Assembly: GCA_002926195.1 (NCBI GenBank)
Contig: MZXQ01000095.1
Location: 1 to 41,161, forward strand
Direction of reading: 5' to 3'
DNA length: 41,161 bases
Source: Candidatus Methanomarinus sp. HR1
GTDB taxonomy: Archaea; Halobacteriota; Methanosarcinia; Methanosarcinales; Methanocomedenaceae
The position numbers were made by a program, and so were the translations under genes. Shown piece by piece: positions 625 through 36,595 of the stretch. Position 1 is the first letter of the stretch, and each line of letters opens with the position of its first letter. The notes under the pieces are model-generated. The model saw only the letters and a program-made list of their open reading frames with translations. It did no database searches and was not told where the DNA came from.

Positions 625-2547
625 TCATACCAGATCCAGTACCTCTTTAATGAACTTGCCTGTTCCTACCTGTTTCATGACATTTCCAAGTCTCTCTCGA
701 CCCGGTTTTGTCCTGTATTTAACAAACGTACCAGCAATTGCATCGATCAATTTAGGTATCTCCTCTTGTGTACAGAACGATTTCAACAAGATTCCGTCTG
801 AAGGTCTTCGTGCATCATTTCCGCCGATCCACATGGAATATCCACGCTCTTTTTCGATCATAGCCTCGCTTGGACAGCCCCTGATACACCAGCCGCAGGA
901 TATACACTTATCCTTATCGATCTGGGCCTTTTTAAGTACTATTGAAATAGCATCCACCCTACACAGTTCGGCACACCGGCCGCATCCATTACATTTCTCG
1001 GGGTCGAGTTCAGGACGTACCTGGCCTATGAGACCAATATCGTGACGGGTTGGTCTGCTGCAGGCATTCGGACATCCGGAAATACTGATCTTCATTTTAT
1101 GGGGTGTAAGTTTTTGTGCAAATGCCATGGTAAGCTCACCGGCGAGTTTTTTAGTCTCAACCAGCCCTTCTGTACAGTATTCACTACCTACACACGACAG
1201 TACATACCCCATTCCTATTGTTGCCATTCCTTTTGAATAGAGTTCTGCCATAAGTTTATCTACATTAGGACCTGGAACACCCTGTATCTCCACACTCTGT
1301 CTGGTAGTAATCTCAAGCGTACCATCACCGTACTTGTTAGCCAGTTCTGCTGCATTTGCCAGACTATCTGCATTAGTCAATCCGGAATTGGTTTTTATCT
1401 TAACAAAGAATGTTCCCTTTGTCTCACCCATAACGCCCGGATAATCAGATGCCCAGTAGAACTTGACCTTCTTGCCTTCATCCAGACGTCTCTTTAATTC
1501 CCACTTGAACCGCTGCATCTTAAGACCGGCAAACTCCTCGATCCTGTGGAGATCGATATTCGATTCAGTCTCGATATATCCTGCTTTTTCTGCCATCTTG
1601 ATCAGTTCAACACCTTTTTGTGTTCTTCCTATGAGCGTGGTCCATCCTTTGCCTGAACCCATATATCCGGCAGAGATATCAGCAAGTTTTGCGACTGCAT
1701 CCCGACATATCACGCAGCCATCCTGTACGCAGCCTGCATTCCATAGATCATTAAGGTCAAACTCGTGTGTTTGTTCATCAGTAGTTACTACCAGTGAATC
1801 CAGGTGTATCTTGGCACTTTTCACTTTTTCAATATCTACACCCTTTTCTGACATAAAGGTAGTCAATATATCATAATTAAAGTTCTCGGTACAGAACAGG
1901 CCAATCACATATGCTATATTAGGGACCTTGATCGTCTCTCCATTCTCGCCGACTTCATAACCATGTGCTGTAAGGCCAGGGAAGAACTGTGTCTTTCTAA
2001 TTCCATACACATGACAGGGTAGTCCGACAACAGCGGCATTGGTTATATCTTTAGCATCCTTGATAGCAGAAAGAACAGGAACCGCTGAATACTTTGAACC
2101 TGCGCTCAAAAGCAGTTCATCTTTTGTCCTGACCACACGTGAGGTTGGTTTTCCGATATCGCCTGTGGTAATTGCACCGTCGATCAATCCCTGGTCCATA
2201 CAGTATGACAACAGAGCAGTTACAGCACCGCCGTCCTGGCCGGCTTCGAGAATTGCAGCATCAGTTGCACGTGCGGATACAAGAAGATCATATTGTCCAA
2301 GCAGTGCAGGTGGTTTTGCTTTAAACCCAAATATATTAGGGCCAATCTTTGAGGAAAATGTCATCATACGCTGACATACATCTTTACAGGCTCCCTGCCC
2401 GTTTCTCGGACATTCTTCCTTTAATACGGGACCGCTCCCGGTGAACTCTATACGGTCATTAGGACATACTGTTGCACATGCACCGCATAATGTACACATT
2501 CCAGTGTCTACAACTTCATCTTTTAGAAACCATTTGTATTCTTCCAT
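625..2547 (-). CDS. fsr: F420-dependent sulfite reductase-like fusion (FrhB/FpoF-like N-half plus siroheme sulfite/nitrite reductase C-half)
   Basis: The N-half has CTLCGACATVCP and an FrhB-like body. The C-half has SGCPNACSRP (siroheme-[4Fe-4S] type) plus CNGCGRCAELC and CISCGWCIRGCP ferredoxin motifs. I moved the start from 2625 to the ATG at 2547 (MEEYKWF...), which is preceded by GGTGAT at 2556-2551. Confidence 0.8.
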   Translation of the reverse strand: MEEYKWFLKDEVVDTGMCTLCGACATVCPNDRIEFTGSGPVLKEECPRNGQGACKDVCQRMMTFSSKIGPNIFGFKAKPPALLGQYDLLVSARATDAAILEAGQDGGAVTALLSYCMDQGLIDGAITTGDIGKPTSRVVRTKDELLLSAGSKYSAVPVLSAIKDAKDITNAAVVGLPCHVYGIRKTQFFPGLTAHGYEVGENGETIKVPNIAYVIGLFCTENFNYDILTTFMSEKGVDIEKVKSAKIHLDSLVVTTDEQTHEFDLNDLWNAGCVQDGCVICRDAVAKLADISAGYMGSGKGWTTLIGRTQKGVELIKMAEKAGYIETESNIDLHRIEEFAGLKMQRFKWELKRRLDEGKKVKFYWASDYPGVMGETKGTFFVKIKTNSGLTNADSLANAAELANKYGDGTLEITTRQSVEIQGVPGPNVDKLMAELYSKGMATIGMGYVLSCVGSEYCTEGLVETKKLAGELTMAFAQKLTPHKMKISISGCPNACSRPTRHDIGLIGQVRPELDPEKCNGCGRCAELCRVDAISIVLKKAQIDKDKCISCGWCIRGCPSEAMIEKERGYSMWIGGNDARRPSDGILLKSFCTQEEIPKLIDAIAGTFVKYRTKPGRERLGNVMKQVGTGKFIKEVLDLV

Positions 2548-2595
2548 AATATCACCTATGATTGAATAATATAGTATCCTCAATTCCATATAAAC

Positions 2596-2623
2596 ATTTC
2601 GTATGAAATTTACGAATTTCGAC
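2596..2623. promoter_or_regulatory. Candidate operator between the divergent fsr and lrp TATA-like boxes
   Basis: Half-sites ATTTC (2596-2600), GAAAT (2605-2609) and ATTTC (2616-2620) are present. GAAATTtacgAATTTC (2605-2620) is a 6+6 palindrome, and ATTTCG is directly repeated 20 bp apart. The site is flanked by ccatataaa (2585-2593, fsr side) and gtatttatatc (2631-2641, lrp side). Confidence 0.3.
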
Positions 2624-2661
2624 ACATCATGTATTTATATCATTATGACAGTTAGATAATA

Positions 2662-3171
2662 ATGAATGATGAAGAGATCAAATGCTGGAGAAAGGAGTCA
2701 TGCGGTGATCTGCTGGATAATTTGCAAATCGATGATATTGATATGAAGATCATCGGTATACTTAGTGAGAATGCAAGAATAAGTAATGTAGATATTGCCA
2801 ACAAGATCGATGTCAGTGAAGGTACTATCAGGCGCAGGATCAATGAAATGGTTAAAAAGGGGACCATAGAGGGGTTTATTTTACTTCTTAATTGCAAGGA
2901 AGCTGAAAAATGTGTCAAGACATTTATCAACATGAAAGTAGATGATATCTGCCTTGATAAGGTTATCGAAGAACTGCTAAATGATCATGAAAGAATTATC
3001 GCCCTGTATCGCGTTAATACAAAGTTTAACATTATGTGCGAGGCAATGTTCCCTTCGGTTATTGAAATGCAGAGTTTTATTGATAGGTTTTCTACGATTG
3101 AAGGGATCATTGATTCTGAAGTAAAAATGGTGATCGGATCATATAAAAAATGTCTGTGGACCGGAATTTGA
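2662..3171 (+). CDS. Lrp/AsnC-family transcriptional regulator
   Basis: An N-terminal HTH (IDDIDMKIIGILSENARISNVDIANKIDVSEGTIRRRINEMVKKGTIEGF) is followed by a RAM-like C-terminal domain. The gene is divergent from fsr. Confidence 0.85.
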   Translation: MNDEEIKCWRKESCGDLLDNLQIDDIDMKIIGILSENARISNVDIANKIDVSEGTIRRRINEMVKKGTIEGFILLLNCKEAEKCVKTFINMKVDDICLDKVIEELLNDHERIIALYRVNTKFNIMCEAMFPSVIEMQSFIDRFSTIEGIIDSEVKMVIGSYKKCLWTGI

Positions 3172-3197
3172 TTTTTTAATAGTATATAATCTGTAAG

Positions 3198-4646
3198 ATG
3201 ATATACACAAGAAAATCCGACCGAAGGGAGGATTTTGTTCTTAATATTTCATCCGGGGGCTTATCAGTGGATATATTCGATGAAATCCGGGACATAGTCA
3301 CTTTAAATCGTGTTAGCCGGGACCCGGCAGAGTTATACTGCTATTCATATGATGCTTCATATATCAGTTCAACTCCTGATTATGTCGTTATGCCTCATTC
3401 CACGCAAGAAGTATCAGCCATAGTAAAACTTGCATCTCAATATCGTATACCCATAGTACCCAGAGGTGCAGGTACGGGCCTATCAGGTGGTGCTGTACCA
3501 ATAAGCGGTGGGATAGTACTTGATATGAGCCGTATGAACAAACTGCAAAAGATAGATATCCCAAACCTCCAGGTACTGGTCGAACCCGGTCTTATTCATG
3601 CCCGGCTTAACAGTGCCCTTGAACCATACGGATTTTTCTTCCCTCCTGACCCTGGCAGCAGTGAAATGTGTACACTGGGCGGATTTATTGCGAATGGCGG
3701 CAGTGGTATGCGCTCGGTCAAATACGGGACAGTCACCCGATATGTACTGGACCTTGAGATTGTGCTGCCTGATGGTGAAATTATCCAAACAGGATCCATG
3801 ACTATGAAATCCGCATCAGGATATGACCTTAATGCACTTATGGTAGGGTCTGAAGGCACGCTTGGAATTATTACCGCAGCCAGGTTAAAGATACATCCTA
3901 TACCGAAAGCCAGAAAAGTAGTACTTGCCCATTTTAATGATCTTGATGCAGCAGGCAGGGCCGTCCCTGCTATAATGGGCCAGGGAATTGTACCCTCTGC
4001 CTGTGAACTGATGGACAGTACAACAATACAGGCACTTAATATATATGACCCTGACCTGAATATTCCCGAATGTGAAGCCTTGCTGCTTATAGAAGTAGAC
4101 GGCACACCTTGCAGTATAGACTCTGATGCAGTAGATATTACCAACTGCTGCCGGGCATTAGGAGCCTTTGATATAAATACTGCCGGTTCTGTTTTGGAAC
4201 AGCAAGAAATATGGAAGGCACGACGCCTGGTAGGTGCTGTGATGACACGATTATATCCTGATAAGACCAGGGTCTATATAGGTGAGGATATTGCAGTACC
4301 TCTATCTGCTATCCCGGCAATGCTTAAAGATATACGTTCGATCTCTTCACGTTACAATATTACGATCATGACCTATGGTCATGCAGGAGACGGTAACTTA
4401 CACACTGGTATGGCTATTGATATACTGGATAAGTACCAGTATGAACAATTAAAGCAGGTGGCTGATGATATCCACAGGGCTGCTCTTCGAAATGGAGGTA
4501 CGGTATCAGGAGAACATGGTATTGGTTGTGTAAGGGAAATATATATGGAACAGGAACACGGCAGGGGACTTGATGTGATGAAACAGATAAAAAAGGCACT
4601 TGACCCTCATAATATAATGAATCCCCAAAAGGTCGGACTTGAATGA
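3198..4646 (+). CDS. FAD-linked oxidase, GlcD / D-lactate dehydrogenase family
   Basis: The FAD-binding PCMH pattern is present (PDYVVMPHSTQEVSAIVKLA ... IVPRGAGTGLSGGAVP), as is the C-terminal GTVSGEHGIG motif. The first ~16 codons are encoded by the repeat at 3208-3245, so the GTG at 3267 is an alternative start. Confidence 0.85.
   Translation: MIYTRKSDRREDFVLNISSGGLSVDIFDEIRDIVTLNRVSRDPAELYCYSYDASYISSTPDYVVMPHSTQEVSAIVKLASQYRIPIVPRGAGTGLSGGAVPISGGIVLDMSRMNKLQKIDIPNLQVLVEPGLIHARLNSALEPYGFFFPPDPGSSEMCTLGGFIANGGSGMRSVKYGTVTRYVLDLEIVLPDGEIIQTGSMTMKSASGYDLNALMVGSEGTLGIITAARLKIHPIPKARKVVLAHFNDLDAAGRAVPAIMGQGIVPSACELMDSTTIQALNIYDPDLNIPECEALLLIEVDGTPCSIDSDAVDITNCCRALGAFDINTAGSVLEQQEIWKARRLVGAVMTRLYPDKTRVYIGEDIAVPLSAIPAMLKDIRSISSRYNITIMTYGHAGDGNLHTGMAIDILDKYQYEQLKQVADDIHRAALRNGGTVSGEHGIGCVREIYMEQEHGRGLDVMKQIKKALDPHNIMNPQKVGLE
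3208..3245 (+). repeat. H6 hairpin module of the dispersed repeat family
   Basis: The sequence caagAAAATCCgaccgaagggaGGATTTTgttcttaat has stem 3212-3218 / 3230-3236. It is the exact reverse complement of 7714-7746. Confidence 0.85.
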
Positions 4647-5680
4647 AACAGTACCTGAAGGATATTGTCAAGTGTGTTAAATGCGGTCGGTGTCGTACAG
4701 TATGCCCTTCACAGAATGTACTGGGCTGGGAATCCTCAGGTCCCAGGGGCAGGATGTTGATGGCACTGGGATGTACTTGTGATCTTGAGATGTCCCGGGG
4801 GATGATTGATGGTTTTCTAACCTGTACAACCTGTCATCAGTGCGTAAGCGAATGCCCATCCGGCGCAGACCCACTGGAAATTACACGAGTTGTTAGACGT
4901 GAACTTATAGATATGGGACATGTAGCTCCTCACCAGATAGAGATAATGAACCGTGTATCCGGGTCAGGAAATTCACTGGGAGATGAATCACCCAGGACAT
5001 CCTGGCTTGATATTCCGGTTGATGCTGGATCTTTTGATCATATTTATTTTGTGGGATGCCTTGCCTCATATAGACAGCAAGAGACCACTGCTGCTATATA
5101 TTCGATCCTGCGGCAGTTTAGTGTAGGGCTGCTGGAAGATGAGAAATGTTGCGGATCACCTTTATATCGGCTCGGCCTGGATACATCGGAATTAATAGAG
5201 CATAATTCATATCAGATAAAAAAAGCAGGGGCACATACGGTCATTACAGAGTGTGCCGGATGCTATGCTATGTTCAGGGGACAGTATGAATTTAATGTTG
5301 TCCACCTTAGTGAATTTTTATCAGATAGGCTTGAGCAACTACCGCTTAAGAGACTTAATATTACAGTAAGCTACCATGACCCATGTCATCTGGGTAGGTT
5401 CAATAAACTCTATGATGCTCCAAGAACAGTTATCAATCATATCTGTACTCTTGAGGAGATGAAGTATTCCAGGGAGAAGGCAGGATGTTGCGGAGGTGGA
5501 GGTGGTGTCAGGTTAGGATATCCCGAACTATCAAGTATGGTAGCAAAGGACCTTGCTGCAAATATACCTCAAGGTATGGACTATGTGGTAACTGCATGTC
5601 CTTTGTGCATCAGGAACCTTTCTGATATAGGTATAAAGACTATTGATCTTGCGGAACTGGTAAGGATGTCTATGGTGTGA
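4643..5680 (+). CDS. GlcF/HdrD-like Fe-S protein with two CCG domains
   Basis: Motifs CVKCGRCRTVCPS and CTTCHQCVSECPS are followed by CCG motifs (EKCCGSP, AGCCGGGGG). There is a 4-nt ATGA overlap with the upstream oxidase gene. Confidence 0.8.
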   Translation: MKQYLKDIVKCVKCGRCRTVCPSQNVLGWESSGPRGRMLMALGCTCDLEMSRGMIDGFLTCTTCHQCVSECPSGADPLEITRVVRRELIDMGHVAPHQIEIMNRVSGSGNSLGDESPRTSWLDIPVDAGSFDHIYFVGCLASYRQQETTAAIYSILRQFSVGLLEDEKCCGSPLYRLGLDTSELIEHNSYQIKKAGAHTVITECAGCYAMFRGQYEFNVVHLSEFLSDRLEQLPLKRLNITVSYHDPCHLGRFNKLYDAPRTVINHICTLEEMKYSREKAGCCGGGGGVRLGYPELSSMVAKDLAANIPQGMDYVVTACPLCIRNLSDIGIKTIDLAELVRMSMV

Positions 5681-10892: not shown

Positions 10893-11062
10893 TCGACAAC
10901 CTCGTACTATGATAAATGTACTTCAAATATATTATTTAGATAAATAGTTTTGGTATGTTTTGGCATTAATTCAGTTATTTTTAGACATGTATTCAACATA
11001 ACTTAAAAAAATAGTGGATGAAAATGATTAAATATTTATTGAATACATACCAATTGAAAAGG

Positions 11063-11109
11063 TTTATAAAATCAAAAAAAAATAGTATTTATTTTATTTA
11101 TCCGGAGGT
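11063..11109 (+). promoter_or_regulatory. Candidate TATA box and Shine-Dalgarno site for the PAS/STAS operon
   Basis: gaaaaggTTTATAAAa (TATA-like at 11063-11071) lies ~45 nt upstream of the ATG. GGAGGT at 11104-11109 lies 6 nt before the ATG at 11116. Confidence 0.3.
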
Positions 11110-11115
11110 TACCAC

Positions 11116-13710
11116 ATGAATAACGTAACAGATAGATTGCCATTAAGATATATAGAAAAAGAGCTACAGTTAATTAGCCTGGATTCACTGGTAATGTTCG
11201 ATCTGAATGGGATTATTGTAGATGTGAATGAAGCAACAGTCAAAGCCACAGGCAACAGCAGGGAAGAGTTGATAAGAACACCATTCGCTGATTATTTCAC
11301 TGATTCTAAAAGGGCACAAAAAGGTGTGAACCTGGTCTTTGAAACCGGAGAGGTCAGGGATTACGAGCTGATTATGAAAACAAAGGATGGAACCGAGATC
11401 ATAGTCTCATATAATGCTTCGGTCTATAAAGACCAGAGTGGAAAGATTATTGGTGCCTTTGCTGCCGCCCGTGATATTACCGAGCGAAAGCGTTCAGATG
11501 TGAAAATTCACAATCTTCAGCGTTATAATCGAGGCTTGATCGAAACAAGCCTCGATCCACTGGTAACATTCGATCAGAATGGAATTATTATGGACGTGAA
11601 CGAGGCTACAATTAAAGCTACCGGCAGAAGCAGGGAAGAGTTGATAGGAACACCATTCGCTGATTATTTCACAGACCCTGAAAAGGCACAAAAAGGTGTG
11701 AACCTGGTTTTCGGACTAGGTGAGGTTCGGAATTATGAGCTGGTCATGAAAGCCAGAGATGGAACCGAAACCATTGTTGCTTATAACGCATCGGTCTATA
11801 AAGATGAGACCGAACAGATAGTCGGAGCTTTTGCTGCTGCTCGTGACATCACCGAACGAAAAAATGCTGAAATTGCACTAAGTGAAAGTAAAGCAGAACT
11901 CGACCTCATTTTCCGGATTGCTGCTGATGCAATGTGTGTAATAGATGCTGATTTTAACATCATCAAGGTAAATAAAACCTTTATCAGATTGGTGGGCATG
12001 AATGAAGATAAAATTATCGGTAAGAAATGCTACGATATCTTTAGCGGGGAATTCTGCCATACTAAAGATTGTCCACTCGAGATGATAAAAAAGGGAAAAG
12101 AGTTTGTTGAACGTGAATCTGTCAAGAAGCTACCGAACGGTAAAGAGATACCTATTATTCTGAGTGCTGCAAGATTTGATAAAAACGGAAAATTTGTAGG
12201 AATTGTAGAGGATTTTAAAGATATCACCGGGCTCAAGAATGCTAAAAAGGAAATACAGGATCTTCAGCGCTACTATCGGGGATTAATTGAGATAAACCTC
12301 GATCCTCTGGTAACCTTTGACAAGAAAGGTATTATTCTGGATGTGAACGAGGCTACAATTAAAGCTACCGGCAGAAGCAGGGAAGAGTTGATAGGAACAC
12401 CATTCGCTGATTATTTCACAGACCCTGAAAAGGCACAAAAAGGTGTGAACCTGGTCTTTGGAATAGGGGAGTTTTGGAATTATGAGCTGGTCATGAAAGC
12501 CAAGGATGGAACCGAAATCATTGTTGCTTATAACGCATCGGTCTATAAAGATGAGACCGGACAGATAGTCGGAGCTTTTGCTGCCGCTCGTGACATCACC
12601 GAGCGAAAAAATGCTGAAATTGCACTAAGTGAAAGTAAAACAGAACTTGACCTCATCTTCCAGATCGCTGCTAATGCAATGTGTGTGATAGATGCTGATT
12701 TTAACATCATCAAGGTGAATAAAACCTTTATCAGATTGGTGGGCATGAATGAAGATAAAATCATCGGTAAGAAATGCTACAATATCTTTAGCGGGGAATG
12801 CTGCCATACTAAAGAATGTCCACTCGAGATGATAAAAAAAGGAGAAGAGTTTGTTGAGCGAGAATCTGTAAAGATACGACCGGACGGTAAAGAGATACCT
12901 ATTATTCTGAATGCTGCAAGATTTGATCGGGACGACGAATTCTTAGGGATTGTAGAGGATTTTAAAGATATCACCGGGCTCAAGCGTGCTAAAAAGGAAA
13001 TACAGGATCTTCAGCGCTACAATCGAGGATTAATTGAGGTAAACCTCGATCCTCTTTTAACCTTTGACAAGAAAGGTATTATTCTGGATGTGAATGAGGC
13101 TACAATTAAAGCTACTGGCAGAACCCGGGAAGAGTTGATAGGAACACTTTTTGCTGATTATTTCACAGACCCTAAAAATGCAAACAAAGCTGTAGAGCTG
13201 GTCTTTGAGAACAAAGAAATAAGGGATTATGAACTGATCATCAAAGCCCGGGATGGTACCAAGACTACTGTGGCCTACAATGCATCAGTCTATAAAGATG
13301 AAGCGGGAGAGATCGTAGGGGTATTTGCCGCTGCTCGCGATATTACCGAGCGAAAAAGATCAAAGCAGGAACTGCAGGATACCATCAAGAGGCTTGAGGC
13401 ATACACTGGCCGCGTTAATAGTCTGATGGTAACTATATTAGAAGAGATATCCGACGTCAAAACAAAAGCTATCATTCTTGATATTACAGGAATAGAACAG
13501 GATATTGAAACATTGAATCCTCTGATCAACATTGCACGATATGCAAAGCTACTTGATGCAACATGCATTATAACAGGTATTAAACCTGAAACAGTGCAAA
13601 GATTGTCTGGTCTTGGAGTTGTGTTAGATCCTGTCACTGCAGAACGATCCCTGGAGGAAGGGTTAAGATATACAATATTGATTACAGAAGAGAATAATGA
13701 TAATAGGTGA
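11116..13710 (+). CDS. Multi-PAS sensor protein with C-terminal STAS (RsbR-like) domain; no kinase or other output domain
   Basis: There are six PAS-like units. Four are of type A (LDPLVTFD..GII.DVNEAT ... DGTE..V.YNASVYKD..G.I.G.FAAARDITERK). Two are of type B (DAMCVIDADFNIIKVNKTF ... with a C-x8-C-H-x3-C motif). The C-terminus AIILDITGIEQDIETLNPLINIARYAKLLDATCIITGIKPETVQRLSGLGVVL matches the stressosome-type STAS pattern. Confidence 0.85.
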   Translation: MNNVTDRLPLRYIEKELQLISLDSLVMFDLNGIIVDVNEATVKATGNSREELIRTPFADYFTDSKRAQKGVNLVFETGEVRDYELIMKTKDGTEIIVSYNASVYKDQSGKIIGAFAAARDITERKRSDVKIHNLQRYNRGLIETSLDPLVTFDQNGIIMDVNEATIKATGRSREELIGTPFADYFTDPEKAQKGVNLVFGLGEVRNYELVMKARDGTETIVAYNASVYKDETEQIVGAFAAARDITERKNAEIALSESKAELDLIFRIAADAMCVIDADFNIIKVNKTFIRLVGMNEDKIIGKKCYDIFSGEFCHTKDCPLEMIKKGKEFVERESVKKLPNGKEIPIILSAARFDKNGKFVGIVEDFKDITGLKNAKKEIQDLQRYYRGLIEINLDPLVTFDKKGIILDVNEATIKATGRSREELIGTPFADYFTDPEKAQKGVNLVFGIGEFWNYELVMKAKDGTEIIVAYNASVYKDETGQIVGAFAAARDITERKNAEIALSESKTELDLIFQIAANAMCVIDADFNIIKVNKTFIRLVGMNEDKIIGKKCYNIFSGECCHTKECPLEMIKKGEEFVERESVKIRPDGKEIPIILNAARFDRDDEFLGIVEDFKDITGLKRAKKEIQDLQRYNRGLIEVNLDPLLTFDKKGIILDVNEATIKATGRTREELIGTLFADYFTDPKNANKAVELVFENKEIRDYELIIKARDGTKTTVAYNASVYKDEAGEIVGVFAAARDITERKRSKQELQDTIKRLEAYTGRVNSLMVTILEEISDVKTKAIILDITGIEQDIETLNPLINIARYAKLLDATCIITGIKPETVQRLSGLGVVLDPVTAERSLEEGLRYTILITEENNDNR
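11500..13355 (+). repeat. Intragenic tandem repeat, 747-bp unit (PAS-A + PAS-B), about 2.5 copies
   Basis: The landmark cttcagcg recurs at 11515, 12262 and 13009 (period 747). A 113-nt run is identical at 11596-11708 and 12343-12455. Confidence 0.9.
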
Positions 13711-13714
13711 GAGT

Positions 13715-14092
13715 ATGGCGCAAACTAAAAAAGAAAAGCTGGATCAGGTACTGGCCAAATTCATGCAGGTTGGACAGATAAGCGCTGCAGGGATAGTGAG
13801 TACTGAAGGACTGCTGATAACATCAATAATGCCGCCTGATATGAATGAACGCATTGTCGGTGCACTGTGCTCGACAATTATAGCAAGTGCCCAGACAGCA
13901 AGTTCGCAAATGGGAACCGGAGAAGTAGCAGAGGTTAATGTAAAGACCGAACACGGTGTATTATTGTTAAAGCCATCGGGAGAAAAGGCACTATTCTTTG
14001 CACTGGCGCAGGTAGAAGCCCAGCTTGGTCTGATCACAGTCGAGATCGAAATAAGGGCCAAACAGGTTCAGGAGATACTGGAAGAGGTATAG
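13715..14092 (+). CDS. Roadblock/LC7 (MglB-like) domain protein
   Basis: The pattern is typical of the family (GQISAAGIVSTEGLLITS ... ERIVGALCSTIIASAQ ... VNVKTEHGVLLLKPSGEKALFFAL). I prefer the ATG at 13715 because GGTGA at 13706-13710 precedes it. The ORF track starts at 13697. Confidence 0.8.
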   Translation: MAQTKKEKLDQVLAKFMQVGQISAAGIVSTEGLLITSIMPPDMNERIVGALCSTIIASAQTASSQMGTGEVAEVNVKTEHGVLLLKPSGEKALFFALAQVEAQLGLITVEIEIRAKQVQEILEEV

Positions 14093-14096
14093 GATA

Positions 14097-15281
14097 ATGG
14101 ATATGAAAAAAACCTATATTCCGCGACTGGATGATATCCTGAAAGGGGGTACACCCCCTGGAACATCCGTATTATTCAATGCAATACCAGGTATGCTGTG
14201 TGATGTTTTCGGTTATCAGATCATTGCCCAACGTATACATCACAATAAAGAGATAGGATTTATTTATACTAATACACGTACACCTGCTGAGATTTCGCGT
14301 GTATTTGATAAATACGGATGGGACCTAATAACACCTTTGCAATCAGGTCAGTTATTCTTTGTTGATTCCATCTCCCCTATGATGGGAGTGCCACCGATTG
14401 GCAGATACTGTATTGATGATTTTAATAAAAGCAAAGATACCGTATTAAGTGCGATCAGTGACATAGCTGGCGGTACGGCAGTGATCGAAAATGTAGCCAC
14501 ACTCATTGACTCTATTGGTGCAAATAACACCATGGAATTGATCAGGGCATGGAATGAAGCTGCTAACAAGCACAATGTAAATATAATATATATATTTACC
14601 AGATGGGATTATGAGGACCGGATGATAGATCAACTGACAGGTCTTATCAACTGTACGATAGAACTTTTTGGTATAGAAGAAAGAGTAATGTACAGACAGG
14701 TCTATGTAGTTGTAAAGTCCAGTTGGAGTACAATATCTAAGACTAAAACATTCTTCGAGCTGGTAATGCCCGGAGGGGTCAAAGTATTTATTCCAAAGCT
14801 GTTAGTAACCGGACCCTATAACGCAGGAAAGACTGCATTTGTTCATGCGATCTCCCAGAATGCCGTCTCGGTAGATAGGCAGGCATATGAACTATTTCCA
14901 ACTACAGTCGGACTGGATATAGGACATATTGATTACAAGGGATTTTCTGCTGACATCTTTGGTACACCTGGTCAGGAGCGGTTTGATCTATTACTTGAGC
15001 CACTATCAAGAGAAGCGATCGGTGCATTTATTGTAATTGACTCAACCCAACCAAATACCTTTACCCGTGCAAAGGAAATGATCGATATGTGCCGTGCAGA
15101 AGTAATACCAAAGGTAATTGTTGCCAATAAGCAAGACCTCTCAGGTGCTATGCGGCCGGAAGAGATAAAAAAACGCATGGCATTATGGGAAGATGTACAT
15201 ATAGTGCCAGTTTCAGTAAAGAAAAATAAAGGGATCAATCAAACGCTTAATTCACTTTTTGATCTTATATACAGAGTATAA
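14097..15281 (+). CDS. Fusion protein: KaiC/RecA-like domain with degenerate P-loop plus MglA/CvnD-type small GTPase (COG2229-like)
   Basis: Residues 1-230 are KaiC-like (IPRLDDILKGGTPPGTSVLF) but have NAIPGMLCDV where Walker A should be. Residues ~234-394 carry G1 GPYNAGKT, G3 FGTPGQ and G4 NKQD. Confidence 0.8.
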   Translation: MDMKKTYIPRLDDILKGGTPPGTSVLFNAIPGMLCDVFGYQIIAQRIHHNKEIGFIYTNTRTPAEISRVFDKYGWDLITPLQSGQLFFVDSISPMMGVPPIGRYCIDDFNKSKDTVLSAISDIAGGTAVIENVATLIDSIGANNTMELIRAWNEAANKHNVNIIYIFTRWDYEDRMIDQLTGLINCTIELFGIEERVMYRQVYVVVKSSWSTISKTKTFFELVMPGGVKVFIPKLLVTGPYNAGKTAFVHAISQNAVSVDRQAYELFPTTVGLDIGHIDYKGFSADIFGTPGQERFDLLLEPLSREAIGAFIVIDSTQPNTFTRAKEMIDMCRAEVIPKVIVANKQDLSGAMRPEEIKKRMALWEDVHIVPVSVKKNKGINQTLNSLFDLIYRV

Positions 15282-15289
15282 TAACAAAA

Positions 15290-15979
15290 ATGATACAATC
15301 TACCAGATCAGGGATCACAGGTCTTGATGAATTAATTGGCGGCGGATTCCCTAATAATACTATTACATTGATCTATGGGCCACCGAAGACAGGTAAGTCC
15401 ATATTTTGTTACCAGTTCCTGCAACAGGCAATAACTGATGATGAATACTGCCTTTATATAATGACAGATTACAATCTTTCACAACTTGAAGAAACAATGA
15501 TGTATTTCAAATGGTTTATTCATGACTATTTTACTAAAAAGCAGCTTTATGTGATGGATATTGCATCAGGGTCGGTTGGTGCTGTCCAAAAAGAAACTGC
15601 TTCATTCAAGATATCTTCACCACAGAATCCAACAGAGATCATTAGCGAGATTATTGAGGAATTACAGTCCATCTACCAAAAAACGCATACATTCAGATCA
15701 ATTCTTGATTCTGCAACTACCCTGTTTGCCTACAATTCACCAATACTTATGATCAGGGTACTTAAATCATATACTATGAGGATAAAATTGGCTGGAAGTA
15801 CAGGCATAATCATCTATACGGAAGGAGTGGTAGATTCACAGATAGAGACCATGTTAAAGGCAACTGTAGATAATATTGTGCATATGGATGGAAAAAAGAT
15901 AACTGTTGAAGCGATGATGGGATGTGATCATGTAAGTGCTAATTACAAGATCACTGATAAGGGGATCATTATTATTTGA
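15290..15979 (+). CDS. KaiC/RecA-like ATPase, single domain, intact P-loop
   Basis: ITGLDELIGGGFPNNTITLIYGPPKTGKSIFCYQF contains the Walker A motif. FRSILDSATTLF is Walker B-like. Confidence 0.8.
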   Translation: MIQSTRSGITGLDELIGGGFPNNTITLIYGPPKTGKSIFCYQFLQQAITDDEYCLYIMTDYNLSQLEETMMYFKWFIHDYFTKKQLYVMDIASGSVGAVQKETASFKISSPQNPTEIISEIIEELQSIYQKTHTFRSILDSATTLFAYNSPILMIRVLKSYTMRIKLAGSTGIIIYTEGVVDSQIETMLKATVDNIVHMDGKKITVEAMMGCDHVSANYKITDKGIIII

Positions 15980-16002: not shown

Positions 16003-16266
16003 TCATCCGAGAATGTCCTTAGTACGCCTTGCAACCATTATGATCCCGATCGCAACAATTCCCATACCAAGATTTCTTAAATAGCCTGCATAAGTAAATC
16101 CTGTTAAAGCAGTTATGATATAGGTCATATGGATTATACTTCCAAGTAGAATGACATACCAGCACTGCTTCCAGTAATCGATTTTGATGGACCTGATCGC
16201 ATATATGCATGCATAGATGAAGAACAGTCCGATCAGAAGTCTGACACATAACTCTACATTGAACAT
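16003..16266 (-). CDS. Small hydrophobic membrane protein (hypothetical)
   Basis: This 87-aa ORF has three predicted hydrophobic helices. I prefer it to the overlapping alternative frame 16019-16300. Confidence 0.4.
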   Translation of the reverse strand: MFNVELCVRLLIGLFFIYACIYAIRSIKIDYWKQCWYVILLGSIIHMTYIITALTGFTYAGYLRNLGMGIVAIGIIMVARRTKDILG

Positions 16267-18070: not shown

Positions 18071-18106
18071 ATATCTACTTATACTACTTTGGTAATCTAT
18101 TATTGT

Positions 18107-18424
18107 ATGACAAATAATGTAGTACAAGTCAGAATGCCATACGCATTACTTAAGAATATTGAAGAACTTGTTAAAAGGGGATACTATAAAAACAAAAGTG
18201 AGGTTATCATTGATGGAATGCGTCATTTTGTAGGTACAAAACAACCAGAAAGTGATATTGCTCAATATTTAAGAGATGAAATTCATGGAAGACAGATTAA
18301 GCAAGGATATTCAAAAAAAGAAATTGATGATCTTTGGAAAAAAGTTGAATCTAGAAATGAATGGAAAAAGCGGTTTGGATCAGATGCTGATAGTGTCATG
18401 GCATCAATTAGAGGAAGACAATGA
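18107..18424 (+). CDS. vapB: Ribbon-helix-helix (CopG-like) antitoxin
   Basis: VVQVRMPYALLKNIEELVKRGYYKNKSEVIIDGMRHF fits the RHH pattern. There is a 4-nt ATGA overlap with the PIN gene. I prefer the ATG at 18107 to the TTG at 18089. Confidence 0.65.
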   Translation: MTNNVVQVRMPYALLKNIEELVKRGYYKNKSEVIIDGMRHFVGTKQPESDIAQYLRDEIHGRQIKQGYSKKEIDDLWKKVESRNEWKKRFGSDADSVMASIRGRQ

Positions 18425-18870
18425 TATTGATCGATACGGATATTTTTGTAATAGAAAGACTTTTTAAAAATGATAAAAGATACACCATTAATAAGGAATT
18501 TCTGATAAGTGAAATTGAAGGCAAGTGCACTTCAATTTTTAATTTGTTTGAGTTGCTCGGTATTGCTTCTTTCAATTTAAATTCAAATGAATTAAAGAAA
18601 TTGTTCAAAAGTTTTCCAGAGATATATGATATGAAAGTATTATATCCGATTACATCTTATGAATCTGCAGAGGCTTTTATCGAACATTTTTTTGAAAATA
18701 CCTTTGAAAAAATCAGTTTAAAGATGAATTTAATGGATGCAATTATTCTAAATATAGCACAAGAGCATAATTGTTCTACATTTGTTACATGGAATTTGAA
18801 ACATTTTATAGGACGTACAGATATACCAGTAAAAACGCCTGAACAAATATTAGCAATTAATGCTTCATAA
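18421..18870 (+). CDS. vapC: PIN-domain toxin
   Basis: The N-terminal MILIDTDIFV contains the first acidic residue of the PIN motif. Later D/E positions and the ~150-aa size also fit. Confidence 0.75.
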   Translation: MILIDTDIFVIERLFKNDKRYTINKEFLISEIEGKCTSIFNLFELLGIASFNLNSNELKKLFKSFPEIYDMKVLYPITSYESAEAFIEHFFENTFEKISLKMNLMDAIILNIAQEHNCSTFVTWNLKHFIGRTDIPVKTPEQILAINAS

Positions 18871-20328: not shown

Positions 20329-20946
20329 TCAGGCCTTAATACGCTTAAGTCTAAAAGTATTCTCCCTTTCCATCTCATCCAGCCTGAGAATAATAAAATC
20401 TCTGGCCTCTGAAAGTTCCGGGATCACTTTAAACTCAAGTGCATTGACCCTGCGCTTGGTCTTCTCAATATCATCTAACAGTTTCTTGATAGTCGTCTCT
20501 ATCTCTGCTGCCAGGATAATCTTATCGACCAGGTTTTCATAAGCTTCCGCAGCCTCATCTATCCGGCTGCTTGTCCCTATAATACCATATCCCCTTTCAT
20601 TAATATCCTTTTTGATACTGCTGGACTCTATCTTAGGGACAACCACTCCCATTACGTTCTTGCTCTCTACTTCCAGTCTAGGTGTATCCTTGAATGAAAA
20701 AGCAGTAGACTTGACTGTAACAATTCCTTCAACTGACTTGGCAACATTGATCTTTTCCATAGAGCTAATGAACTGTTCATCCAGCTCAGCCCGTACTGTT
20801 TTGGCTTTTTTTAAGATCTCAAAGAACTCCAGGATCAACCCATCCCGCTTCATCTTGAGCAGTTTATGCCCACTCTCAGATAGTTTGATCTTCCTTTTTA
20901 GTTCAATTAGTTCTGAGCGAGTGGGCTTAACATCCTGTACAGTCAA
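20329..20946 (-). CDS. atpD: A1Ao ATP synthase subunit D
   Basis: The N-terminus KPTRSELIELKRKIKLSESGHKLLKMKRDGLI is typical of A/V-type subunit D. It is the last gene of the operon. Confidence 0.9.
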   Translation of the reverse strand: MTVQDVKPTRSELIELKRKIKLSESGHKLLKMKRDGLILEFFEILKKAKTVRAELDEQFISSMEKINVAKSVEGIVTVKSTAFSFKDTPRLEVESKNVMGVVVPKIESSSIKKDINERGYGIIGTSSRIDEAAEAYENLVDKIILAAEIETTIKKLLDDIEKTKRRVNALEFKVIPELSEARDFIILRLDEMERENTFRLKRIKA

Positions 20947-20960
20947 TGCAATATCTCCTT

Positions 20961-22337
20961 TTATTTTTTATGTGCCGGATGGTATTTCTCAATATACTTA
21001 TTATCTATCCTGACCAGCAATGACTCAGGGAGTTCTGCCAGCAGTTCCCATCCGATTGAAAGAGTTGTCTCGATATCCCTGTCTTCTTCAGGACCCTGAC
21101 GCACGAACCTGTCCTCAAACATATCTGCGAATTCAAGTAATTTTTTATCCCTGTCAGACAGCGCATCCTTACCAACAATAGCCACCAGGCCTCGTAAGTC
21201 CTTGCCTTCTGCATAAGCTGCATATAACTGATCTGATACTGCTTTGTGGTCTTCTCTGGTATGACCTTCACCAATACCGCTGTTCATCAACCTGCTAAGT
21301 GATGGCAGCACATTGATAGGCGGATATATACCTTTCATGTGAAGTTCCCTGGATACGACTATCTGGCCTTCTGTGATATATCCACTAAGATCAGGTATGG
21401 GGTGTGTAATATCATCACCAGGCATACTTAATATACTGAACTGGGTCACAGATCCTTTTCTACCCTTTATTACACCTGCCCGCTCATAGAGACTGGCCAG
21501 GTCAGTGTACATATAACCAGGATAACCACGTCTGCCAGGTACTTCTTCCCTGGCAGCACCCATCTGCCTTAGAGCCTCACAATAATTAGTAATATCAGTC
21601 AGGATGACAAGTACATGCATATCATGCTCATAAGCCAGATATTCAGCAGCAGTAAGTGCCATTCTCGGTGTGATCAATCGCTCAACTGCCGGGTCATTAG
21701 CAAGATTCAAGAATACTACTGCCCGCTCGAGAGCACCTGTACGCTCAAAATCATGCATGAAATACTGGGCTTCTTCATGGGTAATACCCATAGCTGCAAA
21801 AACCACAGCAAAATCTTCTTCACTACCAGGTACTTTTGCCTGCCTGGCGATCTGCAATGCGATCTCGTTATGGGGCAGTCCCGAGCCTGAGAAAATAGGT
21901 AGTTTCTGGCCCCTGACAAGCGTATTAGTACCATCAATAGTACTGATACCGGTCTGGATGAAATCCTCCGGCGGCATTCTGGAAAACGGATTAATAGCCG
22001 CACCCATTATATCAAGTCTATCTTCCGGTATAATAGCTGGCCCGCCATCTAATGGGTCTCCTGACCCTGACAGTATCCTGCCCAGCATATCAAATGATAC
22101 CGGTAGCTTGATAGTATCTCCACTGAACCGTACCCCACAGTCTCTATTCAGGCCGCCTGTACCTTCGAATACTTGTACTACCACAATATCATGGGATGTA
22201 TCCAGTACCTGACCTCGTTTTGTTGTACCATCCGGCAAATTGATATTCACCAGTTCATTGTAACCGACAGGTTCGGTCTTTTCAAGGAAGATAAGCGGAC
22301 CTGCGATCTCTGTGATCGTCTTATATTCTTTTGTCAA
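20961..22337 (-). CDS. atpB: A1Ao ATP synthase subunit B
   Basis: I trimmed the start to the TTG at 22337, giving (M)[14 protein letters not shown], the usual A-type B N-terminus. GGAGG lies 9 nt upstream. The ORF-track start at 22394 would overlap atpA by 56 nt. Confidence 0.9.
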
Positions 22338-22338
22338 T

Positions 22339-24108
22339 CTACTCAACCTCCTGAGTGGCACTGTCAGCAAATGATTCACCTTTGATCGAATCAAACTCTT
22401 TATCCATTTTATCCATCACCTTTTTCAGTGATCCATCGAAATCTTCCTCAAACCTTACCTTTGCCAGTTCATCCTTTGACTTCAGTGTAATGATATCCTG
22501 TATAAGTACACCGGATTCCAATGCCGCATTTGCCTTATCTGAAAACTTTTGTATAGCATCCAGCAGTTTGTATTGCTTGTCCATAGGACAGAAAGTATCT
22601 ATGGGATGGAATGCGTTTTGCTGCAGAAAGAACTCCCTGATCAATCTAGTGATCTCTAATGTCAATTGCTGATCGGGTGGGAGTGCATCCGAACCAACGA
22701 GTTGTACAATATCCTGAAGTTCAGCTTCCTGCTGAAGCAGATCCATAGCATCATCCCGAAGATCGGTCCACTGCGGAGATACATTCTCATCATACCACGG
22801 TGACAGTGCCTTGGAATACAAACTGTAACTGCTTAGCCAGTTGATGGACGGGAAATGACGCTTCTGGGCAAGTTTTGCATCAAGTGCCCAGAACACTTTC
22901 ACAATTCGCAGGGTATTCTGGGTGACAGGTTCTGAGAAGTCACCGCCGGGAGGAGATACAGCACCGATAATGGTGATAGAACCGTCAAGTCCTCCTAATG
23001 ATACTACTCTACCAGCTCTCTCATAGAACTCGCTTAAACGTGCGGATAAGTATGCCGGGTATCCCTCTTCACCGGGCATCTCTTCTAATCTTGATGATAT
23101 CTCTCGCATAGCTTCAGCCCATCTGCTGGTACTGTCTGCCATTAATGCCACATCATAACCCATATCCCTATAATATTCTGCAATAGTAATGCCGGTATAT
23201 ACACTGGCTTCCCTGGCAGCAACAGGCATATTACTGGTATTGGCTATAAGCACGGTTCTTTCCATTAGTGGCCTGCCTGTTTTCGGATCTTCCAGTTCAG
23301 GGAACTCATTAAGCACATCAGCCATCTCATTACCTCTCTCACCGCAGCCGATATATACCACGATCTCAGTATCGCTCCATTTTGCCAGCTGCTGCTGTGT
23401 AACGGTCTTACCGCTTCCGAAAGGTCCTGGAATAGCTGCTGTTCCGCCTTTTGCGACAGGGAACAATCCATCCAGGATCCGCTGCCCGGTAATAAGAGGA
23501 ATATTGGGCGGCAGCTTCTTAGAAACAGGCCTGGGTTCCCGTACAGGCCATTTATGCATCATCTTTATCTGAGTGCCGTTTGTAAGTGTGCATATAGTAT
23601 CCACAACTGTGAACTTTCCTTCTTTTATCTCAGCTACAGTACCTGAAATATTAGGTGGGATCATAATCTTGTGGTCCACATTATGGGTCTCCTTGACCAC
23701 TCCTATCACACTACCTCCGGATACTTTATCTCCTGCTTTCACAGATGATTTGAATTCCCAGGGTTTTTCATGATCCAGCCCGTCAATCATAACTCCGCGC
23801 CGGATAAAATCACCCATAGTATCTTTAAGAATAGGGAGGGATCGCTGTATGCCATCATATATACTCTTAAGAAGTCCGGGTCCTAATTCAACAGAAAGTG
23901 GCATACCAAGGTTTTCCACAGGTTCTCCAGGTCTGACACCTGCTGTCTCTTCATATACCTGGACAATTGATTTATCTCCTTCTATGCCGATAACTTCTCC
24001 CATCAGACCTTCATTACCTATTTTGACCACATCATACATCCGGGTATTAACACCCTGAATGGTAACTACAGGCCCCGATATTCTAAAAATTTCTCCTTTT
24101 ATTTCCAC
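22339..24108 (-). CDS. atpA: A1Ao ATP synthase catalytic subunit A
   Basis: It has the P-loop GPFGSGKT and the non-homologous region typical of A/V-type A subunits. The N-terminus is [15 protein letters not shown]. Confidence 0.95.
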
Positions 24109-24398
24109 AGATCAACACCTACTGCTTGTTTAATTTTATCTCTCAAATTTGAACTTTCCCCTGCTCCGCCTATTGTAATTGTTGTTGGTGTTACTAATTC
24201 ATCTAACGTGATCCTTAGCTTTTCAGGTAATCCAGCCATGTCATCGTTGTGTATCACCAGCACTCCTACATCCTTATCTTTTAATATGTTCCGGATGATA
24301 GGCACAAGATCATCACCATTTGTCTCCAATATCTTTTTTACTCCGGCCATCCTGAAACCCAGGGTAAATTCACTTTTTCCAACTACTGCTATTTCCAT
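24099..24398 (-). CDS. atpF: A1Ao ATP synthase subunit F
   Basis: It is 99 aa, begins [20 protein letters not shown], and sits between C and A. Confidence 0.85.
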
Positions 24399-24400
24399 AA

Positions 24401-25453
24401 TTATATCACCAGTTGTTTTCTTATGGTCTCATCAGCTAATTGTGCCTCTTTACCACGCACTATAGTCCTTATATTTCTAACTTCAAGTTCTTTATTGAGC
24501 ATATAATCAAATATAGGCAGGATCGATAGTGGATAATAATGGGATATCTTAGATGCAAACGCAAGAGCATACTTATCCAGTACAGCTTCCATATCCTTGA
24601 GACTATCCATTTCAGCAGACACTACATCTGACAGTTCAGACCAATATGAATAATCTTCAAGTGCTTTTAGAAAATCCGACCACTGAAGTGATGCTAACTT
24701 ATTCAAATCAGCTGTTTTTATTTCAATACCTCCGGGAATCAACAGCTCAAAAATGATGGTTTTATCAAGATCAGCTTTCTTAGTCCGAAAAAGTGTCTTA
24801 AGGTTCTTAATATCTATCTCTGTTCTAATGAACTTAAGACTCAGTTTCTCAGCTTTGGTACTGCCAAGGGATGCAAGAAGTCTTGAATAATATAGTTTAT
24901 CCAGGTTATTCTCGACATCTGATAGCATAGCACCATCATAATCTTCGATAACAGGATAATAAGGTGTAAGATCAAGAGCAGCTTTAATATCTTCAATTGA
25001 ATTCATGCCAGCTATTTCAGTCAACTGACGATAACCCAACTGCCCGGCAGCTACAACAGTGTCAAGTATCTCTTCAAGATCAGCACCATAGTTTTTACCT
25101 CTTAAGATGGTTTTAATATTCCAGATGTCCCAGTGACGTAAATATTCTGTTATTAGATAATTAGGTTCATCACGGGATATACGCTGCAATTTTCGATATG
25201 TTCTGGCCAGATTCTGGTTCAGGGCATGTTCGAACAGGTCTATATCATTATATTGTTGAGCCAGTTCATCTACGTTCTCCTTATATTCGGATTCTTCAAT
25301 AAAACGAGTGATCTCAGCAATATCCATATTCATAAGTTTAGGATAAACTTCACGTGGCATCAATTTACTTTTCATAGCCCTGACTCTGGCTGTAATATAA
25401 GGATATTTCTTACTACCACGTTTGATAAAGAATGCCATAATGATCTCACCCAA
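24401..25453 (-). CDS. atpC: A1Ao ATP synthase subunit C
   Basis: YPYITARVRAMKSKL is the hallmark N-terminus. An alternative ATG at 25438 gives MAFFIKRG. Confidence 0.85.
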   Translation of the reverse strand: MGEIIMAFFIKRGSKKYPYITARVRAMKSKLMPREVYPKLMNMDIAEITRFIEESEYKENVDELAQQYNDIDLFEHALNQNLARTYRKLQRISRDEPNYLITEYLRHWDIWNIKTILRGKNYGADLEEILDTVVAAGQLGYRQLTEIAGMNSIEDIKAALDLTPYYPVIEDYDGAMLSDVENNLDKLYYSRLLASLGSTKAEKLSLKFIRTEIDIKNLKTLFRTKKADLDKTIIFELLIPGGIEIKTADLNKLASLQWSDFLKALEDYSYWSELSDVVSAEMDSLKDMEAVLDKYALAFASKISHYYPLSILPIFDYMLNKELEVRNIRTIVRGKEAQLADETIRKQLVI

Positions 25454-25997: not shown

Positions 25998-26026
25998 GTC
26001 CTATCTCCCGGTGATGGATATGGAAT

Positions 26027-35729: not shown

Positions 35730-35732
35730 GTC

Positions 35733-36590: not shown

Positions 36591-36595
36591 ATTGA

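Follow-up and report, generated by a model that had tools for sequence, protein, structure and literature searches.

A Roadblock, KaiC::GTPase and KaiC gene triad of archaea and its PAS-STAS companion gene in ANME-2a/b

How a multi-PAS sensor protein could be connected to a Roadblock/LC7 protein, a small GTPase and an ATPase of the KaiC family is the question raised by a four-gene cluster of an anaerobic methanotrophic archaeon (ANME). The cluster is located in a stretch of 41,161 nucleotides from Candidatus Methanomarinus sp. HR1 (GenBank assembly GCA_002926195.1, contig MZXQ01000095.1), the whole of which was analysed and is called the window below. The host is an ANME-2b methane-oxidising archaeon; a protein annotated as Candidatus Methanomarinus sp. 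(family Methanocomedenaceae) matches the C-terminal 131 aa of gene 1 with full identity. An open reading frame (ORF) scan found the four ORFs on the + strand at 11116-15979, separated by gaps of 4, 4 and 8 nt. They encode a PAS/STAS-like protein (gene 1), a Roadblock/LC7 protein (gene 2), a fusion of a KaiC-like domain with a small GTPase (gene 3) and a single-domain KaiC-like ATPase (gene 4). A first-pass annotation, made from the sequence without database searches, had proposed that the PAS/STAS receptor feeds a Roadblock-GTPase switch which is physically wired to a KaiC-like ATPase pair. The analysis described here showed that genes 2-4 represent a conserved three-gene unit, and that the PAS-STAS gene is an ANME-2a/b-specific addition to this unit, the upstream sensor being swappable.

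The Roadblock, fusion and KaiC genes across archaea

Custom hidden Markov models (HMMs) built from the domains of the window were used to annotate 88 related loci. The Roadblock, fusion and KaiC genes were directly adjacent in 78 of these. Five of the other loci were cut by contig ends, three held all of the parts in another order and two were without a Roadblock gene; altogether, a Roadblock gene was present within the locus in 81 of the 88. Since the triad recurs in so many of the loci, its arrangement is far beyond chance. The hosts belong to ANME-2, Methanoperedens, Methanosarcinaceae, Methanocellales, Methanobacteriaceae, Methanomassiliicoccales and other groups. The first-pass annotation had proposed to look for co-conservation of all four genes. 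The neighbourhood check found it for the last three, whereas the PAS-STAS gene was found together with them only in ANME-2a/b.

The conservation of the fusion gene, also asked for in the first-pass annotation, was confirmed. Homologues of the fusion formed 1151 clusters of 90% identity at E <= 1e-5 and matched at least 580 loci in species-representative genomes. At E <= 1e-30 the family consisted of 82 clusters (50% identity), and the full-length architecture was the same down to about 25% identity. In about 90 representatives the two-domain architecture was kept, and the length of the protein was 355-430 aa.

Two gene orders were observed in the 78 complete triads. Type A, Roadblock-fusion-KaiC(-KaiC), was found in 42 of them and is the order of the window, ANME-2a/2c, Methanobacteriaceae and Methanomassiliicoccales. 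Type B, KaiC-fusion-Roadblock, was found in 36, from Methanoperedens, Methanosarcinaceae, Methanocellales, Hydrothermarchaeales and Alkanophaga. Both types occur in some ANME-2 genomes (loci L009 and L075 in one case, L013 and L068 in another). The median intergenic gaps in the complete triads ranged from -4 to +1 nt. The Roadblock, fusion and KaiC proteins all divide along the line between the two types, and their pairwise-identity matrices are correlated with rho values of 0.80-0.88. The tiny gaps, the common split and the correlated matrices point to genes 2-4 being an operon of co-evolving proteins. The KaiC partners of type B (L049-L087) carry a non-canonical Walker A motif, GPPMSGK[E/D], and the Asp of Walker B is often replaced by Asn. 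Judging from these motifs, both KaiC-fold proteins may be poor ATPases in the type B lineages.

Profile searches supported the assignments which the first-pass annotation had given to the three proteins. Gene 2 scored 56 bits with the Roadblock/LC7 HMM of Pfam (Robl_LC7, PF03259; cut-off 23) and matched the Roadblock-domain entry 7F8M (E = 7e-15) and CvnB5 (3LEQ, E = 1e-3) in the PDB. Gene 3 had been described as a KaiC-like domain without a P-loop, fused to a small GTPase, and the Pfam scores of 48.8 bits for KaiC, 48.1 for Ras and 45.3 for Arf agree with this description. When aligned with the CI domain of KaiC, gene 3 has PGMLCD in place of the Walker A sequence GTGKT and NT in place of the catalytic EE. 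The Walker A-equivalent positions were not conserved across 90 full-length fusion representatives (50%-identity clusters), and by these substitutions the KaiC-like half is judged to be catalytically dead across the family. AlphaFold2 (AF2) produced a compact two-domain model of gene 3 with a predicted local distance difference test score (pLDDT) of 86 and a predicted template modelling score (pTM) of 0.80. The N-terminal domain matched the archaeal KaiC-like protein PH0284 (2DR3, an entry of six chains) in Foldseek with a template modelling (TM) score of 0.85.

The C-terminal half of gene 3 carries the GTPase motifs G1 GPYNAGKT, G2 PTT in the context FPTTV, G3 GTPGQ in the context DIFGTPGQER, and G4 NKQD. 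The GTPGQ sequence was invariant in 13 homologues. Among the 90 representatives, G1 had K in 98% and S/T in 99%, the two Thr residues of G2 were present in 83% and 91%, the G, T, G and Q of G3 in 96%, 86%, 94% and 82%, and the N, K and D of G4 (N-K-x-D) in 91%, 89% and 80%. The signature of MglA groups 2-5 is a G3 motif GTPGQ in place of DxxGQ and a conserved G2 Thr where group 1 has its intrinsic Arg finger (PMC4316618). With GTPGQ and TT matching this signature, the G domain is, by its motifs, of the MglA-family type, and the parallel with MglA/MglB and the actinobacterial conservons drawn in the first-pass annotation was apt. Members of the MglA family are typically gene-coupled to MglB (PMC4316618). 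Since the GTPase carries the MglA-family GTPGQ signature, the Roadblock protein is probably its MglB-like partner.

Gene 4 was also found to be what had been suggested, an apparently intact KaiC-like ATPase. It scored 104 bits with the Pfam KaiC model (PF06745; cut-off 26.6) and matched PH0284 (E = 7e-19) and KaiC (E = 4e-16) in the PDB. Its Walker A (GPPKTGKS) and Walker B (ILDS) motifs are intact, and an Asp aligns with the catalytic Glu of RecA.

The PAS-STAS protein and other upstream genes

Six PAS-like units had been noticed in gene 1, and both Pfam and NCBIfam returned six stretches (PAS_9, 297 bits in Pfam). The units follow the order A-A-B-A-B-A, and a 747-bp direct repeat corresponding to a pair of PAS-A and PAS-B is present in three copies in the gene. 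The last PAS domain was modelled by AF2 with a pLDDT of >95. A C-x8-C-H-x3-C-P motif, or more fully C-Y-[D/N]-[I/V]-F-x-G-x-x-C-H-[S/T]-x-[D/E]-C-P, is conserved in the two PAS-B units and kept in the ANME-2 orthologues, and a similar Cys pattern is present in the bacterial PAS-STAS proteins P0145 and P0175. The Cys-rich motif of PAS-B may be a metal- or redox-sensing site. As the first-pass annotation had stated for gene 1, no kinase, HAMP, GGDEF or HTH domain was found, in this case in any of the four proteins by Pfam and NCBIfam.

The tail of gene 1 had been assigned to the STAS domains of the RsbR/RsbS type. The homology was confirmed, but the domain is degenerate. Its score with the Pfam STAS model (PF01740) was 13.9 bits, below the cut-off of 22.6, and no PF01740 match is on record for any of the close ANME-2 homologues. 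The last 131 residues nevertheless matched the STAS chains of stressosome RsbR/RsbS in a phmmer search of the PDB with E = 3e-7 to 5e-5, and a profile of the ANME-2 homologues recovered many bacterial PF01740 proteins (RsbR-type, PAS-STAS) at E values down to 7e-19. Alignment with the bacterial relatives showed an 11-residue deletion in the ANME-2 STAS which removes the 'PVxxvWxGvxxxPLIG' β1-β2 hairpin. At the phospho-acceptor position after the conserved Asp, most ANME-2 sequences read D-[I/V]-E and the bacterial relatives D-T. The AF2 model of the tail had a pLDDT of 50-70 and consisted of a Jα-like helix, α1, β3, α2, β4, α3 and α4, with only two strands predicted. The top Foldseek match was full-length YtvA (2MWG), a LOV-STAS stressosome photoreceptor. 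Two C-terminal motifs, ATCI and GLRYTI, were invariant in nine aligned ANME-2 sequences. Because the STAS part has lost both the hairpin and the phospho-acceptor, is below the Pfam cut-off and was modelled with such a low pLDDT, classical, kinase-driven partner switching, which the first-pass annotation had invoked for STAS, is unlikely. The 41-kb window contained no GHKL kinase of the RsbT/SpoIIAB type and no RsbS- or RsbT-like gene.

Outside ANME-2, the nearest relatives were bacterial RsbR-type PAS-STAS proteins, with 36-42% identity over the last PAS domain and STAS. The PAS domains found in bacterial PAS-STAS proteins are similar to PAS-A as well as to PAS-B of gene 1. Because both the PAS types and the STAS part have these resemblances, with identity up to 42%, the whole PAS-STAS unit looks bacterial in origin as far as the sequences can tell.

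A PAS-STAS gene was present 5' of the Roadblock gene only in the ANME-2a/b loci of about 75% identity (L005, L006, L009, L010, L011 and L013). In each of the six ANME-2a/b loci where sequence upstream is available, it directly precedes the triad, about 9-10 nt away. The number of PAS units in these proteins varied from 1 to 11, and some loci contained two PAS-STAS genes. The second gene of L005 (4023-4749), located upstream of the first, is split into two overlapping ORFs (117 and 132 aa), possibly through a frameshift or as a pseudogene; in that case the sensor genes would seem to turn over. The genes accompanying the module in the other type A lineages were of several kinds. V4R and Cys-rich proteins are encoded upstream of it in ANME-2c, where the Cys-rich ORFs had no Pfam or NCBIfam match. 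An additional Roadblock, a stand-alone GTPase and a V4R protein are encoded at the locus in Methanomassiliicoccales, and Methanobacteriaceae have two conserved small ORFs 0.5-2.5 kb upstream on the same strand (for example L001 4556-5488 and L004 3106-4030). The inputs of the different lineages appear to be non-homologous, since phmmer found no homology of the STAS tail to the small upstream proteins of other lineages (L001, L004, L007, V4R). An apparent 'conserved family' in 30 loci was rejected, as it was an artefact of antisense ORFs over the Roadblock gene.

Possible mechanism and alternatives

On balance, and with moderate confidence, we favour the view that the four genes form one operon and that this operon is an ANME-2a/b elaboration of a three-protein NTPase switch with the mechanism proposed here. 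For the connections between the parts and for the output, our inference is as follows. The Roadblock dimer would set the GTP/GDP state of the G domain, being a platform for it in the manner of a GTPase-activating protein (GAP) or of an exchange factor for guanine nucleotides (GEF), as MglB is for MglA. The dead KaiC domain would be an adaptor that forms a mixed RecA-type ring together with active KaiC-like subunits. Depending on its nucleotide state, the G domain could gate what this ring does (ATP turnover, autophosphorylation or the binding of partners), or the gating could run in the reverse direction. The input in ANME-2a/b would be the multi-PAS sensor, recruited from the bacterial RsbR/YtvA-like PAS-Jα-STAS lineage, and its two Cys-rich PAS units may bind metal or sense the redox state. 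The truncated, putatively non-phosphorylatable STAS would dock onto a core protein without phosphorylation. The first candidate for this docking is the Roadblock protein, because it is the immediate and probably translationally coupled neighbour of PAS-STAS. The output would be through protein-protein contact and not encoded in the operon. A Lys/Arg finger acting in trans was also considered as support for the mixed KaiC ring; it was dropped because the C-terminal halves were aligned unreliably to KaiC.

A more far-reaching proposal can be made only tentatively, and we doubt it more than we believe it. The triad could be a distinct ancient archaeal device in which a G-protein switch gates a RecA-type ATPase ring via a pseudo-enzyme adaptor subunit, and ANME-2a/b could have equipped this device with a captured stressosome-type sensor, its STAS remodelled into a kinase-independent docking module. 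If true, G-protein and KaiC signalling would be combined here in a hybrid without a characterised counterpart, and PAS redox or ligand sensing would be linked to the behaviour of methane-oxidising consortia.

Several points speak against the switch as proposed. That Roadblock has a GAP role is an extrapolation from MglB of bacteria, and the case for a mixed ring consists of gene adjacency and the co-divergence of the two KaiC-fold proteins. Hydrolysis of ATP by the ring may not be essential generally, because the Walker motifs of type B are non-canonical. The STAS part, sub-threshold in Pfam and poorly modelled, could be a decaying remnant. In addition, no conserved effector gene was found alongside the triad across the annotated loci.

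The missing output could be explained if the triad controls the assembly or polarity of a surface filament, either type IV pilus-like or archaellum-like, which would be compatible with the proposed switch. In this case the KaiC-like ATPase would act on a secretion ATPase as ArlH does, the GTPase and Roadblock would have the roles of MglA/MglB, and PAS-STAS would provide environmental control. The archaellum motor is regulated by the KaiC-like protein ArlH, and the polarity of Myxococcus pili is under the control of MglA/MglB. In one locus, L008, genes of the PilB type (T2SSE) and for T2SSF adjoin the module, as do another two KaiC-like genes. In Methanobacteriaceae a TPR protein is encoded downstream, after the second KaiC gene, and several members of one of the upstream ORF families begin with GQ[IT][ST]xE[YF] and a hydrophobic stretch, similar to a class III (type IV pilin) signal peptide. 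However, the pilin-like call is a motif seen by eye, and Pfam and NCBIfam gave no match. Archaeal loci for type IV pili were reported to contain Roadblock proteins of arCOG02603 frequently (PMC4858521), but the 41-kb window contained no pilus or archaellum gene. The Methanoperedens-type neighbours, unprofiled and judged by eye, have a housekeeping appearance as well (S19e-like, small RNA-binding-like and cysteinyl-tRNA synthetase-like). Control of a filament by the triad thus seems unlikely to us, although it deserves some weight.

A different question is whether PAS-STAS belongs to the triad functionally at all. It could be an independent RsbR-like sensor which oligomerises through STAS or has partners elsewhere, and which merely has a common promoter with the triad. 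Most lineages have the triad without a PAS-STAS gene, and the second gene copies in some ANME-2 loci, with the split one in L005, suggest a loose constraint. Bacterial stressosomes include PAS-STAS proteins, and the genes of RsbS and RsbT are found nearby. In the window, however, these two genes are absent, and the STAS part has lost the hairpin and phospho-acceptor that are used with RsbT. The adjacency to the triad was kept in 6/6 ANME-2a/b loci even though the tested outer genes were not syntenic, and the invariant ATCI and GLRYTI motifs argue for a selected function. We therefore regard the independence of PAS-STAS as quite improbable. Finally, the cluster could be a KaiC-based timer, with an hourglass or clock-like phosphorylation cycle, in which the GTPase/Roadblock pair and the PAS sensor take the roles of KaiA/KaiB. 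Both gene 4 and, in its N-terminal half, gene 3 do belong to the KaiC family, and the combination of a dead and a live KaiC domain recalls the two-domain organisation of KaiC. Nevertheless, no KaiA or KaiB homologue was found in the window, each of the two KaiC-fold proteins has a single KaiC domain, and the circadian models of NCBIfam scored far below their cut-offs (63 vs 408 bits for PRK09302 and 41 vs 546 for TIGR02655). Together with the degenerate Walker motifs of the type B partners, this makes a timer highly improbable.

Surroundings of the cluster and comparison with known systems

The layout of the locus given in the first-pass annotation, namely the four gene coordinates with their gaps, the AT-rich 223-bp region upstream of gene 1, the GGAGGT sequence and the convergent gene at 16003, was reproduced by the ORF scan and by reading of the sequence. 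GGAGGT is located at 11104-11109, six nt 5' of the ATG of gene 1, and the TATA-like sequence TTTATAAAA at 11063-11071 in the same spacer. An alternative ATG of gene 2 at 13697 would overlap gene 1; the orthologues have 125 aa. The features are listed in Table 1.

Table 1. Coordinates of the four genes, their domains and the adjoining features in the window.
Feature	Position	Strand	Length	Basis
Putative promoter and leader of the operon	10893-11115	+		Read from the sequence
Gene 1, PAS/STAS-like protein	11116-13710	+	864 aa	
Gene 1, sensor part with six PAS domains	11116-13347	+		Pfam and NCBIfam, six stretches each
Gene 1, PAS-B unit, residues ~250-385	11866-12270	+		
Gene 1, PAS-B unit, residues ~499-634	12613-13017	+		
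Gene 1, C-terminal Jα-like helix and degenerate RsbR/YtvA-type STAS-like domain	13348-13710	+		phmmer, profile, AF2, Foldseek
Gene 2, MglB-like Roadblock/LC7 protein	13715-14092	+	125 aa	Pfam, PDB matches
Gene 3, predicted dead-KaiC::small-GTPase fusion	14097-15281	+	394 aa	
Gene 3, N-terminal half, KaiC/RecA fold, predicted catalytically dead	14097-14780	+		Pfam, KaiC CI alignment, Foldseek
Gene 3, C-terminal half, MglA-family small GTPase by its motifs	14781-15281	+		Pfam Ras/Arf, motif conservation
Gene 4, single-domain KaiC-like ATPase	15290-15979	+	229 aa	Pfam, PDB matches, motif alignment
Hydrophobic, predicted membrane protein, convergent to gene 4	16003-16266	-	87 aa	tblastn

The 87-aa protein encoded by the convergent gene had no family match. 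A tblastn search located it at the corresponding place in L006, L009, L010, L011 and L014, with 68-69% identity, and it may be associated with the module in ANME-2a/b. The other flanking genes tested (a topoisomerase, a 161-aa secreted protein and Trm1) had no counterpart in those loci. A plasmid or mobile origin of the cluster was rejected, as megablast against plasmids gave no match. A defence system was also rejected; PADLOC gave marginal partial matches only, the best being ThsB with 25 bits within a PAS unit. Rfam families at gathering score were absent from the window, as were tRNAs.

Further genes of the window were noted. An ORF cut by the edge (3-428, +) matched DUF835 with 57.7 bits; DUF835 and KaiC-like matches co-occur in locus L004, and this ORF may be part of another KaiC-related protein. 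A fusion of FrhB (F420 hydrogenase β-like) with a nitrite/sulfite reductase at 625-2625 (-) resembles an Fsr-like F420-dependent sulfite reductase, and it is followed at 2662-5680 by a divergent AsnC/Lrp regulator and then by an FAD-oxidase plus CCG/Fe-S pair. Downstream of Trm1, an overlapping pair at 18089-18870 (+), consisting of a 111-aa protein without a family match and a PIN-domain protein, resembles a toxin-antitoxin pair of the VapBC type. The long gene run at 20329-28559 (-), which was not profiled, suggests an A1Ao ATP synthase operon by ORF sizes and order. Genes for a MoxR AAA+ ATPase and DUF58/VWA, BatA-like and VWA proteins are present at 34755-40893 (+), preceded by a DUF7502 protein gene (33867-34733).

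Classical two-component systems are few in archaea. Makarova, Galperin and Koonin reportedly proposed in 2017 that archaeal KaiC-like ATPases are signalling hubs, an idea that has hardly been tested. With a KaiC-like ATPase, a Ras-like GTPase and the Roadblock protein coupled in one co-evolving operon, the triad offers a concrete, testable case of the hub idea. Its hosts span methanogens, methane oxidisers and alkane oxidisers, and the main interest is in the combination of this widespread core with an input that is visible in ANME-2. The dead KaiC domain would be a pseudo-enzyme serving as a covalent adaptor, which bears on the wiring of archaeal Roadblock-GTPase platforms, the ancestors of systems of the Rag/Ragulator type. 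The ANME-2 sensor with its conserved Cys-rich PAS motif provides an entry to what uncultured methane oxidisers sense.

The first-pass annotation knew of no characterised system with this composition, and in the searchable literature this was found to hold. No experimental or explicit comparative description of KaiC, small GTPase and Roadblock as a unit was found in the full-text literature, with the KaiC-hub paper of 2017, which may list the neighbourhood, lying outside this coverage; within the same coverage, no description was found of a fusion of inactivated KaiC ('iKaiC') and GTPase with a fixed Roadblock and KaiC partnership. The components, on the other hand, have been surveyed comparatively, as MglA group 4 and as KaiC hubs. 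Group 4 is almost exclusive to methanogenic Euryarchaeota, and no conserved neighbours were reported for it (PMC4316618). Since that survey of MglA excluded proteins of >240 aa, the KaiC::GTPase fusion was outside its scope (Wuichet & Søgaard-Andersen 2015, PMC4316618).

From MglA/MglB, the conservon, the stressosome sensors and the KaiC systems alike, the cluster departs in at least one defining trait. The cluster has in common with MglA/MglB of Myxococcus and Thermus a Ras-like G domain with GTPGQ (no Asp) and Thr-Thr in G2, as well as the adjacent Roadblock/LC7 gene. In contrast to these, the G domain is fused to a dead KaiC fold (394 aa compared with 150-240 aa for the single-domain proteins), the KaiC-like ATPase is an obligate third partner, and there are no RomR/RomX-like genes here. 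An actinobacterial conservon consists of the histidine kinase CvnA, the Roadblock protein CvnB, the DUF742 protein CvnC and the GTPase CvnD. It resembles the cluster in being an operon of a sensor, Roadblock and a GTPGQ-type GTPase without a response regulator, and CvnB5 is homologous to gene 2. Here, however, the host is an archaeon, the sensor is PAS-STAS and not a histidine kinase, no HisKA/HATPase or DUF742 match was found in the four proteins, and the GTPase shares its polypeptide with dead KaiC and has a KaiC-like ATPase as partner. The sensor itself follows RsbR and YtvA (PAS/LOV-Jα-STAS) in its order of PAS, helical linker and C-terminal STAS, with RsbR/RsbS as best PDB sequence matches and YtvA as best structure. 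It differs from them by its six PAS domains, by the STAS without hairpin and phospho-acceptor, by the lack of RsbS/RsbT nearby and by its place in an archaeal GTPase/KaiC operon.

On the KaiC side, gene 4 is a typical member of the archaeal single-domain KaiC-like ATPases (PH0284, PH0186, ArlH/FlaH, CirA-D), and the description of 'iKaiC', an inactivated KaiC fused to another signalling domain (PMC5847659), applies to gene 3 in its N-terminal half. Unlike circadian KaiC, neither protein has tandem KaiC domains, and KaiA/KaiB are not in the window. As in the eukaryotic Rag GTPase-Ragulator system with its Roadblock/longin platforms, a Roadblock-fold platform would serve a small GTPase that is permanently joined to a non-GTPase domain. 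The appended domain of Rag is Roadblock-like and dimerising, whereas here it has the RecA/KaiC fold, and no membrane-trafficking context is evident. Taken together, the cluster is read as an MglA/MglB-type switch joined to a KaiC hub, combining known kinds of components.

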